Position numbers and translations under genes: made by a program. Below the pieces are notes generated by a model, which was given only the letters and a program-made list of their open reading frames with translations, ran no database searches and was not told where the DNA came from. 64,000 bases of DNA from Candidatus Heimdallarchaeota archaeon (GTDB lineage Archaea; Asgardarchaeota; Heimdallarchaeia; Heimdallarchaeales; Heimdallarchaeaceae), in NCBI GenBank assembly GCA_019057815.1, contig JAHLWR010000013.1:1-64000 (forward strand), written 5' to 3'. Below are positions 3,662 to 45,407 of this stretch, one piece after another (position 1 is the stretch's first letter; the number at the start of each line of letters is the position of its first letter).

Positions 3662-5317
3662 CTAGCTATCAATCTTGATAGTTAAACATTTCAATGCTTT
3701 TTTCATGAACACTATTACCTCGTTCTTACCTATGGCATCAACAAGTGTTCCTGCTCTTGGACCAGATTTTCTTCCAATAAATATTAGATAGATTAGTTGG
3801 AAGAACTCTTTAGGTTTGATTTGCTGCTTTTTAGAATATTCATACAAGAATTGAGTGATTTCGTCTCCTTTGAGTGTATCTGGTAGTTTTTGTAAAGCTT
3901 CAAGTAGATGATTGAATATTGTTTGGTCTATACTTTTCACAATTTCACAGTCTGGATTTTCGAAAATCTTAAATTTTATCTTATCATTGGCATAATTTTC
4001 TATCCAATATTTTACTCTTTGAAAACGTTTTGATAAGAATAAATTAGTTAAATCATCTGGTTCTTGTGGAATGATTCCTGTAGATTTTAATCTATCTATT
4101 ATTTTTTCTTCATCAAATAAACACACTTGCATAACTGTAGCTAAGTGACCGTAGTCCACTCTTATTGCTTTATTTGAAGAGGGATCTCCAATTAATGCCA
4201 ATTCATAAGCTTTGATCGTTTTCTCTCTAGATTTTTTATGTTCTAGACTTAATTTTTGATAGAATAATTCTTCTGCTTGGTCAAACTCTGATGCGATGTT
4301 TGGAATATCTAAATCGACTCTGAAATCGAAATCTGTTCTAAGATTGGTTCTATAGATTTTGTACAGGAATATAGCTGGTTCTAGAATTTTTGGAAATTCA
4401 GTTACTGGCATCCCGCTTCCTGAACTTCCGCTAAGTTTTCTTCCTCCAAAAGTGAGAAAACCATGCTGAATTAGCAAAGGAAGTTTTGCTTTGTTGAATA
4501 TTTTTTTATGAATAGCTAAAGATGTATCAATTGATCCACCTGCTACACCATGGTCTTTTCCTGAAGATTCTACTGTTACACCAAAGAAATCTTGTCTAGC
4601 TGCCCAATCCAATCTCCATTTTAGTTTCCATAATGTTTCTCCCATCTTTATTGTCGATTTCTCTCCACATCCTTTTTTCTCTCTTTTGCAGTGAATGTTA
4701 ATAATAATCTCGTTACTCTCAATTCTATAATCCGTAATAAATGGCGCTGCAAAAATCTTGCATTTTGGGCACTGTACGAGAAAAAATTCTTCCATTCTAG
4801 AACCAGTTATTTCTTCAGTGAGTTGAGATGTTTCCTCTCTCTTTTCAATAAAGAGTTTTGCATATTTATCATACTTTCCTTGAGCATACATTTCTGAGGT
4901 TTTTATTGGTTCAGGGTGAACATCAAACTCGTCCATAATTTCAATAGCATTAGAAATAAAATGATCTGCATAAGAAGAATGACAACCAAGTGGGTCTGGT
5001 ACATCACAAATAGCATGACCTAGATATTTATGTAATAACTTTCCATAATCCTTCTTAAAGAAGGCTGGGATTTTGTCAAATGGGTCAATATTATCAATAT
5101 TAAGTATATAACTAGATTCAGCTTCTAAATTCAAAAGCTCTCTATGAATGGCTCGACATGTTACTGCTTCTTTAAAATTCCCAATATGATAATAACCACT
5201 AGGAGCCCATCCAGTCGCAACAACCTGCTTTTTATCAAATCTTTTAATAGCTTCCTCACTGACAACTGTTGCCCAATGTTTGTATTCTCGATCTTCTCTC
5301 TCATCTATGTGAGTCAT
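3662..5317 (-). CDS. lysS: Lysine--tRNA ligase, class I
   Basis: HWA N-terminus, PSGYYHIGN, KLKWRLDWAAR, GKDH, KLSGS (KMSKS-like), GPRAG anticodon-binding domain. Confidence 0.95.
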   Translation of the reverse strand: MTHIDEREDREYKHWATVVSEEAIKRFDKKQVVATGWAPSGYYHIGNFKEAVTCRAIHRELLNLEAESSYILNIDNIDPFDKIPAFFKKDYGKLLHKYLGHAICDVPDPLGCHSSYADHFISNAIEIMDEFDVHPEPIKTSEMYAQGKYDKYAKLFIEKREETSQLTEEITGSRMEEFFLVQCPKCKIFAAPFITDYRIESNEIIINIHCKREKKGCGEKSTIKMGETLWKLKWRLDWAARQDFFGVTVESSGKDHGVAGGSIDTSLAIHKKIFNKAKLPLLIQHGFLTFGGRKLSGSSGSGMPVTEFPKILEPAIFLYKIYRTNLRTDFDFRVDLDIPNIASEFDQAEELFYQKLSLEHKKSREKTIKAYELALIGDPSSNKAIRVDYGHLATVMQVCLFDEEKIIDRLKSTGIIPQEPDDLTNLFLSKRFQRVKYWIENYANDKIKFKIFENPDCEIVKSIDQTIFNHLLEALQKLPDTLKGDEITQFLYEYSKKQQIKPKEFFQLIYLIFIGRKSGPRAGTLVDAIGKNEVIVFMKKALKCLTIKIDS

Positions 5318-6874: not shown

Positions 6875-8443
6875 TCACCAAGAAAGATTTGTCATCTCTC
6901 TAGCAATAGAACTTTCTTTCTTTATTATCTCAGTTTCTTTCTTATCTCCAATATAAATTTTGAATGTTTCAAAAAGTGGCGGAGTATCACCTGATATTTT
7001 AATAATTAACAGTTTTTCTTGCTCTTTTGCAGGTGGGTTGGCTATCCAAGTAATAATTCTCTTTCCTTTATCGTTTGTTTGTTCCATTACTTGATCATCT
7101 GGAGGGTCTTTTGTAGTAATAACATGAGATATTGGTATTGCATCTTCAATAGAAATAATATCCTCAACATCTCTCACGCATTTTAGTACATATACAAGTC
7201 TATAACCTATCTCATTATCAATAGATTGGATGAATTTTGCTGCTTTTAATATGATGTTTCCTTCAGCATCTTTCACTATTTTCTTTCCTCTAAAAAGATA
7301 GGGGAAATAATCTAAGGAGTATGTTTTTTCCAAAATCTGTCCTTGATTGATGTTTTTTTGTTGCCATCGAATAATAACTCCTTTTAATCTGGCTTTCTCA
7401 ATGATTCCACGGGGTGGCATTGCTTCTGGATTTGATTTTAAAACATCAAATTCTGGTGGTAACTCATCCATAATGTGCAATTCTTCTACTCTCTTTTTAT
7501 GCACATTAATATATTTTATATCTGCAACAAATTCCAGACCAGAAGGAACTATTTCTTCGAATGTATTAAGCACAGTAATTTTATTTTCAATTATTTCAAG
7601 AATTGTACGATTGATTTTCTGTTTCATCTTATATTTGATTTCTGCTTCATTTCCAGGTGCAATTTCAGGTATTTTCCATTCAATTTCGAGTATTTTCTCT
7701 TTTTTCTTCGTGACTGGTTTAATATCTCTGCCTTCTATTGTCATATCATCTATGCTAAAACAATAAGGTATTTCATCTACAATTTTAATATCTGTAATTG
7801 CTTCATTGTATTCATTCTTTAGTCTTGAAGAAACTGTAATATCACCTATTGAATCACCAATATCAATGCTGTTGTTAGTATCGATATTCTTTGTTTCACC
7901 ATTCGCTAATTTGAATTGTTTTCTGCTTTTTACTTCATTTGGGACTTGATATTTATTGTCCTCCATTAGTTTTTGAACTAACTCACTCTGAATATATATA
8001 TCATCAGGGATATGAGTAGTTGAAACCTCAACTCCTATGATTTTACTTTTTTCCTCTGTTTCAAAGACTTCTTCAAAATGAGCAGTATTTATAATTGTAG
8101 TTTCTAAGATCAAATCTTCAATTCTTTGCTCTAGAAGTTCTTCTGACTTGATTAATCTTAAAATAATATTATAATCACTTTGTATTCCTAATTCTGTGAA
8201 ATACTCTTCGACCCATCTAGCAACACGTGTCTCATGCGGAGGTAAGATAGTAGACCAAAACTCTTGTACTGTTCTAACAATTTCATGAAGATTATTGCAC
8301 TCCCTATGACTAATCAAACCACCTGTATCATAAAAGGATACTAAACCATCCATAGAAGTGCTAAATAAATTTGTGTTTGGTTCAATTCGTATGAAATATC
8401 GAGTAGATCCCCAAATTGTTTTTCTTTCTACCATTTTACTCAA
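6875..8443 (-). CDS. Soluble protein with three tandem beta-sandwich (DUF11/Ig-like) repeats
   Basis: Repeated I.DE(I/L)P..F ... I.W.....PG pattern (IVDEIP...IEWKIPEIAPG; IMDELP...IRWQQKNINQG; IEDAIP...ITWIANPP); no signal peptide or TM segment. Confidence 0.6.
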   Translation of the reverse strand: MSKMVERKTIWGSTRYFIRIEPNTNLFSTSMDGLVSFYDTGGLISHRECNNLHEIVRTVQEFWSTILPPHETRVARWVEEYFTELGIQSDYNIILRLIKSEELLEQRIEDLILETTIINTAHFEEVFETEEKSKIIGVEVSTTHIPDDIYIQSELVQKLMEDNKYQVPNEVKSRKQFKLANGETKNIDTNNSIDIGDSIGDITVSSRLKNEYNEAITDIKIVDEIPYCFSIDDMTIEGRDIKPVTKKKEKILEIEWKIPEIAPGNEAEIKYKMKQKINRTILEIIENKITVLNTFEEIVPSGLEFVADIKYINVHKKRVEELHIMDELPPEFDVLKSNPEAMPPRGIIEKARLKGVIIRWQQKNINQGQILEKTYSLDYFPYLFRGKKIVKDAEGNIILKAAKFIQSIDNEIGYRLVYVLKCVRDVEDIISIEDAIPISHVITTKDPPDDQVMEQTNDKGKRIITWIANPPAKEQEKLLIIKISGDTPPLFETFKIYIGDKKETEIIKKESSIAREMTNLSW

Positions 8444-26804: not shown

Positions 26805-27509
26805 TTGAAGGAAATGGATACAGCAGCTAACATTCTATTCCAATCTATAAGTGCTATTTATGAAGGCACTATTAGTGGAAATTCTTTGTATCCAGATCGC
26901 TACTTTTCGGAAAATAACAAAAACAATTATTATTACGGTTTTAAACTACAAGGATTAGCTTTTTCAAGAATCATTGCAAGATTCTACAAACTGAAAAAAG
27001 CTGTGTGTTTAGATATTTTATGGCTAGTCGATGACTCAAATATAAATGGAAATGGAATAGTCACTATATCTCAGAAATCAGGTGAAATAAGGATAGACGG
27101 TAGCCCTAATGAATATATTAGGGGTTTAAAAGAAGACGCGATGATTCACTCTTGTTATCTTGATTTACTCAATCTTAATGACTTTTTTGATAAAATAATT
27201 GTCGGATCTAAAGGATATATTAGTACAAAAAAGATGAAAGAAACAGATTTAAAATTAGCTGACCTTCCTATGAATCTATTTGGTTTCTCGAGAATTTTAT
27301 TAAAGTCCAATTCTTTGACAAATGAGAAATATATAGATTCTGCCACAAATGGATTGATTGCTATTATCGATTTAGTACAAAGATCTTTGGAGAAGTTGTA
27401 CTATTCTGAACCCAAAAAAGAAGATGCTAGTGTCTATTGTGTGAGATGTGGATACAAATTACCAAATGATTCTTATTATTGCGCTTTTTGTGGAAGTAAA
27501 CAAAGATGA
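26805..27509 (+). CDS. Hypothetical protein with C-terminal zinc ribbon
   Basis: YCVRCGYKLPNDSYYCAFCG at the C-terminus. Confidence 0.7.
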   Translation: MKEMDTAANILFQSISAIYEGTISGNSLYPDRYFSENNKNNYYYGFKLQGLAFSRIIARFYKLKKAVCLDILWLVDDSNINGNGIVTISQKSGEIRIDGSPNEYIRGLKEDAMIHSCYLDLLNLNDFFDKIIVGSKGYISTKKMKETDLKLADLPMNLFGFSRILLKSNSLTNEKYIDSATNGLIAIIDLVQRSLEKLYYSEPKKEDASVYCVRCGYKLPNDSYYCAFCGSKQR

Positions 27510-27530
27510 ACTACCTCCACCTAAACATGG

Positions 27531-29293
27531 TTGTTTTTCCCCACTTTTACCACATTTTAGTTAGCTTTTTATAGGAAAATCTAATAGAAATAATGATTCC
27601 GGAATGACGAGAAGTGGGGTGAGAACGACTGTAAAAGTGAGAATTAAAGCAGAAGTAATCACAACACGGAAAAGAAGAAGACTAGAGCAAATTACAGGGA
27701 GAGATACAAGAATAATCAAACAGTACCTCAAAGTAATCTATCACAATGAAGAGCGATTATTAACAAAAAAGAAGGTGAATAAAGCAAAACTAGACCATCT
27801 TACTCTTACCAAATATAAGAAGAATAAACTACACAATCGACCTACAGTTAGACATGATTTGAAAAAGAACTTTCCCCGCTGCTCCCAGAATGAGTTGCAG
27901 GAATGTAGAGAGAATGCTGTAGCCATCTACCACAGTCAACAGGCGAATAATTCTGCTCCTGCTAAAAATCCTCCACTAAAAAAAATCCCTCGCACACAAC
28001 TAGCACATGCTAAAAGGTTTATTCTTACTTGTTCTCCTTCCAACTCTATTGCTCGATGGTGGGTGGGGATAAGAAACTCCTTAGATACAAAGAAGAACAA
28101 AACTAGTAAACACGAGAAACTGTGGTTACCTCTCGCTTGTTCCCCTTATCATGAACATAACCTAAACCTAGGGAAATTACAGGCTCTTGAAGTGCTCTAC
28201 TATCCCAAGAAGAAGGAGTGGTGGGTGCATTTCATCTTGCTTCATGTTCCAGAAAAGTATGCTTCTTCTCGTCCTCCAGCTGTGCTGGGGATAGATCTAG
28301 GAATCAACAAACGTGCAGTAAGTGCACTCTTAACTCCAAAGGGAGTCATCAACCGTCATGAGATCAGATTCTGGTCTGATAAGACACGAAAAAAATTACA
28401 AAAGGAAACAGAAAGAAAAATCGCTAAATTACAGAATTTTTTAGCTAAAACTAGCTTGAGTGTAAGTAATATAAACAGTCTTCTCCACCAACTTAAATCG
28501 CTCAGAAAGAGCCAAAGAACGGAACATAAGCTAACCGACCACACCTATGTCAACAGGTTAGTAAAGTATATACTATCGGTTGGAAAGAGATATGATCTCT
28601 ATGTGGTGGTAGGCTTTCCCATTCATATCCGTAAGAGTCATTATCGAGGTAATTTCCATCCCTATTCCCGTAAAAGTATCCACAAATGGAACTACAGGAG
28701 GGTGACAGAATTGCTCAAATTCAAGCTCTCTTTACACGGATGGGAGGAGTACAGGATACTAGCAATCAGTGAATCGTGGACATCTTCTTGTTGTTCTCGT
28801 TGTGGATCTTATCATACTATACGTCCTAACCAACCCACATTCATCTGCCATACTTGTGGGTATAACCTTAATGCTGACTTGAATGGAGCGAAGAATATAG
28901 CTAGAAGACTGATCAAATATGTTCTGCAACCACAATATACTTCAATAAAAGATCAAGTTAGTGGAAAGTTTTTTCCACTCAGTTCTTTTCGTGTCTTCCC
29001 TGTCTTGAGCCAATGGCTACAGACAAAGCAAAATCATCTGCTTACCCCCGGAGCTGGAGTGAGAGCCTAAGGTTCTCAATAACGCTGTCTCCAGTAATGA
29101 GTCCCGGTGAGGAGATGAACCCCCTCACCTCCGCTAACACTGTGTGTTGGAGGTGTAATCCTAGAGCTTGAAACATCCTACACTACTGCTGTAAGCTACG
29201 CTACTACTTTCTACGTTCTTGGGTTGGGAAGAGTCCTCAAAATTATTTCCACTTTCCTTCAATCTGGGAAAAGTGGGGAAAATAACTCATGGG
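27531..29293 (+). mobile_element. Non-autonomous TnpB-only insertion element, IS607-like ends
   Basis: tnpB without tnpA; imperfect inverted end motifs (27526-27556 vs reverse complement of 29261-29291, 25/31, 14-bp perfect core TTTTCCCCACTTTT); CATGG at both boundaries (27526-27530, 29288-29292); more GC-rich than flanks. Confidence 0.7.
27604..29070 (+). CDS. tnpB: TnpB RNA-guided endonuclease with rearranged RuvC-II
   Basis: RuvC-I GIDLG; canonical Glu position reads VVVGFP; alternative Glu in AISESWTS; zinc finger CSRC...CHTC; RuvC-III NADLNGAKNIA. Confidence 0.9.
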   Translation: MTRSGVRTTVKVRIKAEVITTRKRRRLEQITGRDTRIIKQYLKVIYHNEERLLTKKKVNKAKLDHLTLTKYKKNKLHNRPTVRHDLKKNFPRCSQNELQECRENAVAIYHSQQANNSAPAKNPPLKKIPRTQLAHAKRFILTCSPSNSIARWWVGIRNSLDTKKNKTSKHEKLWLPLACSPYHEHNLNLGKLQALEVLYYPKKKEWWVHFILLHVPEKYASSRPPAVLGIDLGINKRAVSALLTPKGVINRHEIRFWSDKTRKKLQKETERKIAKLQNFLAKTSLSVSNINSLLHQLKSLRKSQRTEHKLTDHTYVNRLVKYILSVGKRYDLYVVVGFPIHIRKSHYRGNFHPYSRKSIHKWNYRRVTELLKFKLSLHGWEEYRILAISESWTSSCCSRCGSYHTIRPNQPTFICHTCGYNLNADLNGAKNIARRLIKYVLQPQYTSIKDQVSGKFFPLSSFRVFPVLSQWLQTKQNHLLTPGAGVRA

Positions 29294-29313
29294 TTAGCAT
29301 TAATGTTTGATTG
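29050..29313 (+). ncRNA. Predicted omegaRNA (scaffold ~29050-29293, guide from 29294)
   Basis: Dense GC-rich stems after the tnpB stop: GAGAGCC/GGTTCTC, CTGGAG/CTCCAG, GGTGAGG/CCTCACC, CACCTCC/GGAGGTG, terminal hairpin 29243-29285; position matches known TnpB omegaRNA loci; boundaries approximate. Confidence 0.65.
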
Positions 29314-29362
29314 TCTTCATATCCTGAAGGAAGGGAACTTCTGCTATGTTTTGTTAAAAGCT

Positions 29363-29698
29363 TCAAGTATGGTATAAAATTTCAGCTCTTGCGATGAGTT
29401 CAAGCGTATTTGTGGTATCAGCCAGTTCTTTAGCATTTGGTGAAAAATTATTTGAAAGAACAAAGCCACCATTCAGGTTTGATCTCTGAATTATTCGTTC
29501 AATATGTATTATTTTATCTGTACCAACACTTCTTTTCCAATCAAGTACCCAAACTCCAACTAACATGTCTTTAATAATTATTAAAAACTCAATAGAGTGT
29601 TTAGAAGGTCCTTGAATTAAAGACAAGTCGTGTGATATAGTTCCAAAACTCTTTAGATATTCAAGGGCTAGTTCAACAAGAGGTGTTTCTTTATCCAT
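29363..29698 (-). CDS. Small Mrr-like restriction-endonuclease-fold protein, probably inactive
   Basis: DWKRSVGTDKI...GFVLSNNFSPNAKELA resembles Mrr_cat; catalytic D...ExK not evident. Confidence 0.55.
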   Translation of the reverse strand: MDKETPLVELALEYLKSFGTISHDLSLIQGPSKHSIEFLIIIKDMLVGVWVLDWKRSVGTDKIIHIERIIQRSNLNGGFVLSNNFSPNAKELADTTNTLELIARAEILYHT

Positions 29699-42943: not shown

Positions 42944-45310
42944 ATGACAAAGGAAAATGTTAATTTGTCTCTTGAACAATTAGCAAGATATCTCGCTGAA
43001 AAACAAAACCTAACAAAACAATATATGGGTGTTAACTACAAGCATGCTATATCGATTTCTAAGAATCTTGCGTTTTTCCAAGATTCAGAATCACTTTATG
43101 CACGTATGAGAACTTTTTCCAGTTCTCTTATTCATTCTTTAATTAAGAATAAGCTTATAGTCCAGGCTCCCTTTATCGAGAAAAAGCTTACATATGTTAG
43201 CAAAGATTTGCTTCCATTTTTTTATTTCAGCAATATAAAAGACAATATTGAATACAAAATGCCTGAAACTAGATCAGTTTTGGAATTCATTAAGGAGCAA
43301 TATATTACAACACGTCAGAAGATTGTGAGTAGATTTGGTTTACAAAGAGAAACAATTATGGAAATACTTGCTGAGTTACGAGAAAACTACCAGATATTCA
43401 TGTATTACGATGGTTCAAGGTGGACAATAAACGATTCTGAATCACTTCTACATAAAGGTACTATGAGTCGTTCAACAGCAATAACTGAATTGGTTTTTCA
43501 AATTATCAAAAGTTTTGGACCGATAACTGTACCTCAAGTGATGAAAGTTTTAAATCTCTCCGGAGGTAGAGTAAGTACCAGTTTGATAGATCTTTATGAA
43601 ACAGAGAGAGTAATAAGAGGGTATTTTATTGAAAATTCAAGTTATGAAGCTTTTATAGCAACAGATGAACTGGCACATCTAGAACAGTATATTGAATTGT
43701 ACGAAACGAAGGAAAATGTTGAGTTTCAACTTTTGCCAGCTAATGATCCACTAGTTAGATATTGGTCTTCCGCTGATTTTGCTGTAATGGATGACACCAG
43801 AAGAATATTAATAATGATATCAGGATTACCTATCTGTTCTTTTGATTATAAGGTTATTAATGACAATTTACACGTTCAGAATCTTCTAAAAACAAGTCAA
43901 TATTCTTATTATGAAGAAGAAATAATCAAAAAGGTAAAAGAGTTTGCAGAGAACCAAGGGAAAATACTGGTTTTTCCAAAAACACAGTCAGAAGCTTTAG
44001 AAAATCAAGCTAAACTTTTCTATGAACAACTAAAAAAGAGAAGTTTCACTTCAAGAGGGTCTGAGTTAACTACTAGTCTATCCCACATTAAAGTTCCTCA
44101 AGACACAAGCAAAAGAATATCTTGGATAGATGTTTTTCCATTTATTCATGACCTTCAATATCTCAACAGGAAAAGTGAATTTAAGACTAAACAAGAGCTT
44201 ATCAGAGGTATAAGAAATATAGGAGTCCCTCTTCCAATAAATTCACTTAAAGTTAGGACAAGTAGAGGAAAAGAAAATATCATCACTGATCTTCAAATAA
44301 GTAAACAGATTGCCATAGGAAAATTTGGAGGATTCTCTCGAGGTTTAATCTTGGCATCAGACTATATTTTATATTCCCGATTACGTGCTACAAAATCGAT
44401 TGGTGTTTTCGAGGAAAAAGCCTTAAACTTCATACAACAAAAAGGTAAGGTAAATTTTAAGCAACTTAGAGAAGGATTGAGATTATCAGATAGAGTGATT
44501 TTAGCAACTTTAAGTAGACTTGAAGGTGCAAATGAAGTCATACAAGGTAAAACCTCATCTAATCAAATAGTGTGGTATCCTGTTTCAGACTATCTAAAAA
44601 ACACACAAGTAAAAAGTATCTCTTCTCAAAGAGATGCGTGGTTAGAAGTTATTCACAGAATTCTTTCTACAAATTTACCTTTATCCATCAGGCAAATTGC
44701 AAACATTACAGGTTTATCAAACACACAAGTTGAAATTTATTTGAGGGAGCTTATTGCATCAAAAGGAGTAAGATCAGGTCGTTTTATAGAAGAAAATGAT
44801 ACTCAATACACTACAAAAGAAATAGAGGAGAGTTTAATAGGTTTTCTTTACAAAAAAGAAAGTGAGGTTCCAGAGATAGAAGGAAATGAGGTTCCAGAGA
44901 TAGAAGAAAGTGAAATAATCTATTTACCAAGAGCTGATCCTTTGCTAGTATTATATCGTTCTTTTGTACTTCAAAAATTTAAAACAAGGATTCTGTTTCA
45001 AAGGTCTTTACCTTCAGAATATGGCGAACTAATGTTAATTAATGGGCTTCCCTTCGCAGCAGTGCATATGAAGAAAGTAGAGGGAATAGAATATATTAAC
45101 AACATAGAACTTTTGGCAGGATATGAAGACAATCATACATTAATGCTAATGTTGACTGCAATTAATGATTTTTACAATAAGACAAAGAAAAACGGTGAAA
45201 AGACTATACAAATTAAACAAATAAATGGAGTTCATCTGAAATCCAACGGAGCAAGACACATAATCGCTTTAATGGATGATATGAAAATTGACTATCACAT
45301 TATTCCATGA
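42944..45310 (+). CDS. Winged-helix repeat protein paralogous to the Lhr C-terminal region
   Basis: IIKSFGP, RGYF/SGRF, LPANDPL and LPRADPL, IKQING motifs shared with the Lhr tail; no helicase motifs. Confidence 0.75.
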   Translation: MTKENVNLSLEQLARYLAEKQNLTKQYMGVNYKHAISISKNLAFFQDSESLYARMRTFSSSLIHSLIKNKLIVQAPFIEKKLTYVSKDLLPFFYFSNIKDNIEYKMPETRSVLEFIKEQYITTRQKIVSRFGLQRETIMEILAELRENYQIFMYYDGSRWTINDSESLLHKGTMSRSTAITELVFQIIKSFGPITVPQVMKVLNLSGGRVSTSLIDLYETERVIRGYFIENSSYEAFIATDELAHLEQYIELYETKENVEFQLLPANDPLVRYWSSADFAVMDDTRRILIMISGLPICSFDYKVINDNLHVQNLLKTSQYSYYEEEIIKKVKEFAENQGKILVFPKTQSEALENQAKLFYEQLKKRSFTSRGSELTTSLSHIKVPQDTSKRISWIDVFPFIHDLQYLNRKSEFKTKQELIRGIRNIGVPLPINSLKVRTSRGKENIITDLQISKQIAIGKFGGFSRGLILASDYILYSRLRATKSIGVFEEKALNFIQQKGKVNFKQLREGLRLSDRVILATLSRLEGANEVIQGKTSSNQIVWYPVSDYLKNTQVKSISSQRDAWLEVIHRILSTNLPLSIRQIANITGLSNTQVEIYLRELIASKGVRSGRFIEENDTQYTTKEIEESLIGFLYKKESEVPEIEGNEVPEIEESEIIYLPRADPLLVLYRSFVLQKFKTRILFQRSLPSEYGELMLINGLPFAAVHMKKVEGIEYINNIELLAGYEDNHTLMLMLTAINDFYNKTKKNGEKTIQIKQINGVHLKSNGARHIIALMDDMKIDYHIIP
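44862..44908 (+). repeat. Two copies of a 24-bp in-frame repeat (EVPEIE)
   Basis: TGAGGTTCCAGAGATAGAAG repeated at 24-bp spacing; protein ESEVPEIEGNEVPEIEESE. Confidence 0.85.
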
Positions 45311-45356
45311 ACTGCCGCTACCTAAAGAAGGGGGACTTCTGCAACGTTCAGATAAA
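45308..45356 (-). mobile_element. IS200/IS605-end-like miniature remnant (PATE-like); a second, interrupted copy lies at 27507-27525 plus 29329-29358
   Basis: TGAACTGCCGCTACCTAAAGAAGGGGGACTTCTGC is 29/35 identical to the rejoined copy; on the minus strand it ends in TTCA and is preceded by TTTA in both copies. Confidence 0.55.
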
Positions 45357-45407
45357 TCAAAACTTAGAGGGATAGATTTTTTATTGAGAAAAATAAAGTT
45401 ATTGTTG

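Follow-up and report, generated by a model that had tools for sequence, protein, structure and literature searches.

A 33-nt inverted copy of a winged-helix gene in the predicted guide position of an archaeal TnpB element: possible capture as break-repair filler DNA

The 64,000-nt stretch of Candidatus Heimdallarchaeota DNA analysed here (the window) contains a TnpB-only mobile element of 1766 bp (27526..29291, + strand), which has CATG at both ends and belongs to a family with five full-length and six MITE-like copies in this genome and further copies in relatives. The termini of the element are 31-nt inverted repeats (27526..27556 and 29261..29291, both listed on the + strand) that are 81 % complementary to each other, and its sole gene is an intact tnpB encoding a protein of 488 aa (27604..29070, +; Pfam PF07282, 50.4 bits against a cut-off of 26.3). 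On either side lie a zinc-ribbon protein gene (26805-27509, +) and a small gene with an Mrr-type restriction-endonuclease domain (PF04471; 29363-29698, -), both of which are undisrupted. About 16 kb away, directly downstream of the gene for a 1908-aa Lhr helicase, is a single-copy gene for a 788-aa winged-helix/AlkZ-like protein (42944..45310, +). The present study concerns a short sequence that this gene shares with the DNA next to the right end of the element.

The boundaries of the element were fixed by aligning the junctions of all 11 copies in the genome, as the preliminary description of this DNA had proposed, and are CATG (27526) on the left and CTCATG (29291) on the right. The same ends were found in about 20-30 copies from eight related genomes, the last invariant base being the T of CAT. 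That description had itself taken CATGGG as the right end; however, the 11 genome copies and those of the relatives give ...CTCATG at 29291, and the two G residues that follow (29292-29293) lie outside the element. When the window copy was compared with the genome by BLAST, the four other full-length copies proved to be about 1.77 kb long and 88-90 % identical to it. An intact tnpB gene was found in the window copy and in those on contigs C40 and C10; in those on C26 and C30 it is broken. The six non-autonomous derivatives, of about 355 bp, have kept about 70 nt of the left end and about 290 nt of the right end (C24:90131-90486, C37:10258-10612, C1:149572-149925, C38:45773-46129, C9:56170-56526 and C36:57194-57550) and retain the presumed omegaRNA gene without tnpB; they would be guide-RNA-only passengers, with TnpB and a transposase supplied in trans. 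No TnpA gene was present in any of about 30 copies. Six resolvase-domain genes, two Y1 genes and three Cas1 homologues are encoded in the genome, all of them away from the element ends, and no Y1, serine-recombinase or Cas1 gene adjoins any copy of the element. A search of the literature for a CATG-targeting TnpB element or its transposase returned nothing specific.

How the family normally inserts could be read from a sister genome of the same genus (G001), which is about 91-93 % identical in the regions compared and from which several element copies are absent. In G001 the empty alleles of four copies (C37, C1, C38 and C10) read flank-CATG-flank (CATT in one case), and the occupied alleles read flank-CATG-element-CATG-flank with no extra bases in all four pairs. 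The family inserts precisely into CATG, a rule that is backed by these empty sites. It follows that a potential guide flank begins directly after the second CATG, and that the motif preceding the target in an emptied site includes CATG. The IS607-type TAM ending in GG that had been suggested earlier is not supported for this family, whose target or TAM-like motif is CATG according to the four occupied/empty pairs. The left CATG of 14 independent canonical copies was preceded by G in seven, C in four, A in three and T in none (background 35 % T; P about 0.002), and the right end of the element reads T-CATG. The TAM is likely to be VCATG, i.e. CATG preceded by any base other than T, which would tell the emptied site apart from the T-CATG of the element's own end. 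In other copies, k-mers of the left flank turn up again 15-70 nt beyond the right end; these were considered as displaced target duplications and rejected, the empty sites being simple CATG insertions.

Comparison of the window TnpB with 118 Asgard homologues showed that D231, E390 and D425 are invariant, as are C397, C400, C415 and C418, which form a C4 zinc finger. At the canonical RuvC-II position the protein has Gly337, in agreement with 99 % of the 118 homologues, and the invariant E390 lies just before the zinc finger. The combination of a RuvC-II glycine with an invariant glutamate preceding the zinc finger is shared across an Asgard clade that includes Heimdall-, Thor- and Lokiarchaeia, and an N-terminal region is also conserved among the 118 homologues, with invariant R33, D34, E97, E100 and C101. 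A rearranged catalytic site of this sort ('RIIr'), in which the glutamate has been relocated, has been described and its activity predicted (Altae-Tran 2023, PMC10691335). Because the residues of the window TnpB match this rearranged RuvC-II state, we do not regard the protein as a dead, TldR-like derivative; judged from its sequence, its catalytic set is complete though rearranged and the nuclease is apparently active. The closest solved structures are TnpB/Cas12f chains (E 6e-11 to 1e-7), and the NCBIfam model guided_TnpB gave 77.3 bits against a cut-off of 100.

In the TnpB-omegaRNA (OMEGA) systems of IS200/IS605 and IS607 elements, e.g. ISDra2, the guide is taken from the flank of the right end and the TAM lies at the left end, and such elements home on the emptied donor site. 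The corresponding part of the window copy is a non-coding right end of about 250 nt (29040..29291, +), the predicted omegaRNA scaffold, which is kept in the MITE derivatives, hardly varies among 20 copies as far as the last T, is more conserved than tnpB and extends to the element boundary. Its 3' end is predicted to pair with the upstream ATGAGTCCCG; one compensatory pair only was seen in the 20 copies, so the omegaRNA structure stays a prediction, and Rfam holds no match to the right end. Both the conservation and the predicted 3' pairing fit an omegaRNA scaffold. Just 3' of it, where the preliminary description had expected the TnpB guide, lies a 33-mer (29294..29326, +), separated from the element end by GG (29292..29293, +). 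The host gene has CA in place of this GG, which is not in the empty allele and is not conserved past the ends of other copies. Since the 33-mer directly follows the right end, this copy's omegaRNA would be expected to include it as a guide, and by position the predicted guide would be GG and then the 33-mer, the latter forming its nt 3-35.

The 33-mer is the sequence shared with the winged-helix gene. Positions 29294-29326 on the + strand and 45117-45149 on the - strand agree at 32 of 33 nt, with an inverted orientation and a distance of about 16 kb between them. This match, first noted in the preliminary description, is real and well beyond chance: none of 100 shuffles of the window gave a comparable one. 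In the 3.7-Mb draft genome (48 contigs) the 33-mer recurs once only, namely at 45117-45149, and is not a multicopy repeat. The single mismatch at position 14 of the 33-mer and the location of the target inside the single-copy 788-aa gene were likewise confirmed, and a winged-helix paralogue that might have been the source does not exist in the genome. When the flanks of all 11 copies were compared with the genome, a second match was found for the flank of the window copy only; the right flanks of the other ten copies gave none, and those of about 20 copies in relatives are unrelated, so that a host-matching flank was rejected as a general property of the family. Two further similarities were examined and set aside. 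The sequence CTGAAGGAAG, shared about 33 nt past the right end of the C40 copy, belongs to a purine-rich region before a start codon and was put down to chance, given that the search was made post hoc; the complementarity of 13 out of 15 nt between the start of the 33-mer and tnpB (28864-28878) was at the noise level of the list from which it came.

The gene, rather than the flank, is the original. At 45117..45149 (-) the sequence covers the codons for ...GYEDNHTLML..., coding sequence that is conserved in 29 orthologues and identical in G001, and the one change in the flank copy turns a conserved His codon into Gln. As the host site is conserved coding sequence while the mismatch destroys a conserved His codon, the flank copy is derived from the gene, and the origin of the 33-mer in the host gene, as originally proposed, is borne out by this direction of copying. 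The accompanying idea, that the host gene had lost a TGG, and with it a Thr codon, does not hold. The 29 orthologues (38-100 % identity) align without gaps at HTLMLMLTA, an extra residue being found in none of them, and the gene in G001 does not differ from that of the window within the 33 nt or in the sequence to either side. The supposed in-frame difference of 3 nt, a TAM or one codon, rested on an arbitrary element end; with the true end the difference is 4 nt and out of frame. What stands is that the host site is without the element's adjacent motif, as it reads CAACA and not CATG. Being without CATG at the match, the host gene is implausible as a former canonical insertion site, and no footprint of a former insertion was found in the 29 orthologues or in G001.

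The window copy itself does not obey the CATG rule. In the empty allele of G001 the two flanks abut within an intact intergenic repeat that contains no CATG, element or 33-mer, and the same empty allele was found in contigs of metagenome runs X16 and X3, which represent relatives of about 94 % identity. All three read CCTAAAG(A/G)AAGGG and contain neither CATGG nor TTAGC, so that the empty site reconstructed in the preliminary description (AACATGG^TTAGC) was wrong. The empty allele joins 27523 to 29327 and skips 1803 nt, which comprise the element with both its CATGs (1766 nt), the GG, the 33-mer and two ambiguous A residues. Accordingly, 2 nt are ambiguous at the left junction; at the right junction CCT(G/A) is common to the end of the 33-mer and the repeat (29323-29326), giving a 3-nt CCT microhomology. 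The left half of the target repeat now occupies 27507..27525 (+), beginning with the TGA stop of ORF 26805-27509, and the right half 29327..29360 (+), its first bases overlapping the end of the 33-mer; the repeat is intact in G001 and has about 50 copies in intergenic DNA. Because the empty alleles are without both, the 33-mer arrived together with the element, and the window copy was placed outside the normal precise reaction of its family.

Both junctions were recovered independently. In runs X1/X2, which probably represent the source sample, contigs produced by another assembler run across the left junction (a 27.5-kb contig at 47.4x) and the junction of right end, GG, 33-mer and repeat (a 19.8-kb contig at 45.7x, over 29261-29600), in each case with 0 differences. 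No empty-site joint was found in X1/X2, and the arrangement looks fixed in that population. The public collections yielded no contig that carried the T-variant 25-mer or spanned the joint of right end and 33-mer or that of 33-mer and repeat, and neither these collections nor the run contigs contained an intermediate, i.e. the element without the 33-mer or the 33-mer without the element. The target repeat belongs to a family of intergenic sequences of about 50 nt whose termini (TGAAC...GTTCA) are short and inverted and whose core is rich in purines, with members at 45309-45360, at 27507-27525 plus 29327-29360, and at about 50 other places in the genome (e.g. C46:27485, C1:170977 and C40:77103). 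Its start often coincides with, or is close to, a stop codon, the TGA or TAA being the stop of a long ORF in 5 of 38 copies only, and Rfam holds no match to it. A break at the hairpin tip of the repeat was considered and rejected, as the repeat folds no better than shuffles.

We favour, with a probability of roughly 0.55, the explanation that the window copy integrated by a non-canonical reaction of the break-repair type, in the course of which 33 nt of the host gene were copied as inverted filler DNA. A non-CATG insertion that retains both CATGs and a foreign 33-mer coincide at one nucleotide, which is best explained by one complex event. A single 1803-nt block was inserted into the intergenic repeat, which has no CATG; the element would have been excised or copied and then captured at a double-strand break, or repair synthesis would have switched templates. 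The element could have come in as a linear molecule, excised and with its CATG overhangs filled in, or repair synthesis could have copied it from a donor locus; the genome contains no candidate donor above about 90 % identity. The 33-mer, an inverted copy of part of the winged-helix gene 16 kb away, would then be templated filler, and it would have fallen by accident into the guide position of an apparently active TnpB. From the anatomy of the locus, namely a templated inverted segment, a GG of unmatched template, a 3-nt microhomology and a 2-nt ambiguity, we infer break repair: the empty allele is without the segment, whose template lies elsewhere in the genome and whose joins show GG and CCT(G), and the whole departs from the normal product of transposition. 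The microhomology, at 3 nt, is short and could be due to chance, and as the event is single and confined to one population, the mechanism is read from one scar.

Insertions of this nature have been described in eukaryotes. Fillers of 1-123 bp accompany transposon-related break repair in rice (PMC4423477), and templated insertions, some of them inverted, have been accounted for by the SD-MMEJ and MMBIR models (PMC2943611; PMC2621351). The sequence at the window locus resembles such filler DNA, whether formed by SDSA, SD-MMEJ or MMBIR (PMC4423477, PMC2943611, PMC2621351), in that a short, inverted, templated segment is accompanied by few unmatched bases and a short microhomology at a non-canonical transposon event. 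It is unlike the eukaryotic examples in that the host is an Asgard archaeon and the filler lies in the guide slot of an RNA-guided nuclease; no archaeal precedent for filler capture of such a kind was found in the literature. The 33-mer would thus be a repair scar of a known kind, with the twist that the guide of a nuclease has, on paper, been reprogrammed to a host gene.

What the predicted guide would do in the cell can be considered from its register. Pairing with the host gene begins at guide position 3, with a further mismatch at position 16, and canonical double-strand cleavage of the host gene is not expected. The host site is without CATG and the match is 2 nt out of register, and the self-matching guide may be tolerated for these reasons; the survival of the cell would be due to the missing CATG motif. 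The guide would still serve retention of the element, because a precise excision would bring this flank to lie behind A-CATG, and the site would be re-cut. The likeness of the flank to the host gene is itself most likely a functionless scar.

An alternative that we consider unlikely is flank transduction, in which the element earlier resided beside the winged-helix sequence, possibly in a different lineage or on one of the several chromosome copies of a polyploid cell, and moved with about 33 nt of its right flank. The 33-mer did arrive with the element, and it is contiguous host sequence at the right end, where read-through would fall. However, the host gene reads CAACA and then TTAGC, with no CATG near the left edge of the match, although the family used CATG in four of four clean cases; the segment is separated from the element end by the GG, which is not from the winged-helix gene. 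Transduced bases were present in none of the four canonical pairs, and the new site is also without CATG, hence the move was in any case not made by the normal transposase reaction. The lack of a footprint in orthologues or relatives also speaks against such a residence.

Distinctly unlikely, in our estimation, is a functional guide acting in trans, the omegaRNA binding and modulating the winged-helix gene, or its mRNA, to which the guide is antisense, as an early step towards a TldR-like system. TldRs are nuclease-dead TnpB derivatives that repress host genes through a promoter-matching guide, and are recognized by a degraded RuvC domain, a stable non-transposon neighbourhood, a conserved guide and a cognate TAM in the target promoter (PMC10705468). 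As in TldR systems, a TnpB-family protein is here accompanied by an adjacent guide that matches a host gene elsewhere in the chromosome; the stretch complementary at 32 of 33 nt coincides with the guide position of a TnpB that is intact and whose catalytic set is complete, though rearranged, and TAM-independent action on single strands appears among the activities reported for TnpB (PMC10278001). Unlike TldR, however, the nuclease residues are undegraded, the element is an ordinary mobile family of many copies, ten of which have unrelated flanks in this genome, and the guide is not conserved in relatives, being present in one genome only, whereas G001 and two other populations have the empty site. 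The target, moreover, lies in a coding region and not in a promoter, has no CATG and is 2 nt out of register.

A fragment of some 33 nt could also have been inserted at the right end by an integrase, e.g. one of the Cas1 proteins of the genome, in the manner of spacer acquisition, which we regard as highly improbable. A length of 33 nt is typical of spacers, and three Cas1 homologues are encoded in the genome. Asgard TnpB transposons linked to Cas1, with a hypervariable region after a conserved T, have been described (PMC10691335). Against this, no gene for Cas1, Y1 or a serine recombinase adjoins any copy, no conserved motif follows the variable flank in about 30 copies, and the 33-mer is bordered by 2 ambiguous nt rather than a duplication of repeat length; spacer-like acquisition would also leave the non-canonical placement of the element itself unexplained. 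An assembly chimera, which a metagenome-assembled draft of 48 contigs and a multi-copy repeat might lead one to suspect, is very unlikely, as the contigs of the other assembler cross both junctions at chromosomal depth with 0 differences, and for a 33-nt piece with a mismatch to be set wrongly between sequences unrelated to it, an assembler would have had to make two joins with no k-mers in common.

The element appears to work as a homing element like those of the OMEGA type, with which it shares a TnpB domain, a conserved non-coding right end that runs to the boundary, a variable flank next to it and a fixed CATG before that flank. It is unlike them in having no TnpA, 31-nt terminal inverted repeats and the palindromic CATG on both sides, and the flank of the window copy is a copy of a distant host gene and not original target DNA. 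IS607 elements have a serine-recombinase TnpA, asymmetric ends and a core or TAM of the GG type; here there is no TnpA in about 30 copies, the ends are 31-nt inverted repeats with CATG, and the IS607_TnpB model scored 28.8 bits against a cut-off of 350. IS200/IS605 elements have a Y1 TnpA, subterminal hairpins without inverted ends and a target of 4-5 nt on the left flank only; here the Y1 genes are elsewhere, the element has inverted-repeat ends with CATG to the left and to the right, and the IS200_TnpB model scored 24.9 bits against a cut-off of 425. The replacement of the RuvC-II Glu by Gly337, together with the invariant alternative Glu E390, is like that of the RIIr TnpB clades and of active sites of the Fanzor1 type (PMC10691335). 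Its closest counterparts are the TnpB branches of Altae-Tran 2023 whose catalytic site is rearranged and which have no transposase.

If break-repair filler is the correct explanation, the locus shows an accidental guide change at base resolution, with the empty allele to hand: 33 nt of a conserved host gene have come to lie in the guide slot. Because the event is single, we regard the locus as a lead and not as a discovery. That filler capture at the right end is a route to host-gene guides, and that the omegaRNA of this copy already influences the winged-helix gene, or its transcript, while leaving it uncut, is a very doubtful proposition; if true, it would be a natural first step from a selfish homing nuclease to a host-directed RNA-guided regulator, or to spacer-like guide acquisition. 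To our knowledge, how the domesticated relatives of TnpB (TldR, Cas12) first came by guides against sequences other than their own insertion site is an open question. For the Asgard-wide TnpB element itself, a set of rules is now in place, consisting of inverted ends, precise insertion into CATG, a relocated catalytic Glu and a predicted VCATG TAM.

Two other sites in the sister genome are of interest with respect to CATG. At G001:C7 (about 3896-4312), the CATG that is occupied by a 357-bp derivative on C9 of the present genome holds a different element of 417 nt, with its own CATG-bounded inverted ends, which differ in sequence; this suggests that several element families share one CATG-specific transposition machinery or hot spot. 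At G001:C45 (about 8398-8416), the site of the frameshifted full-length copy on C26, there is a 26-nt CATG...CATA relic, which represents either a near-complete internal deletion or the footprint of an imprecise excision.
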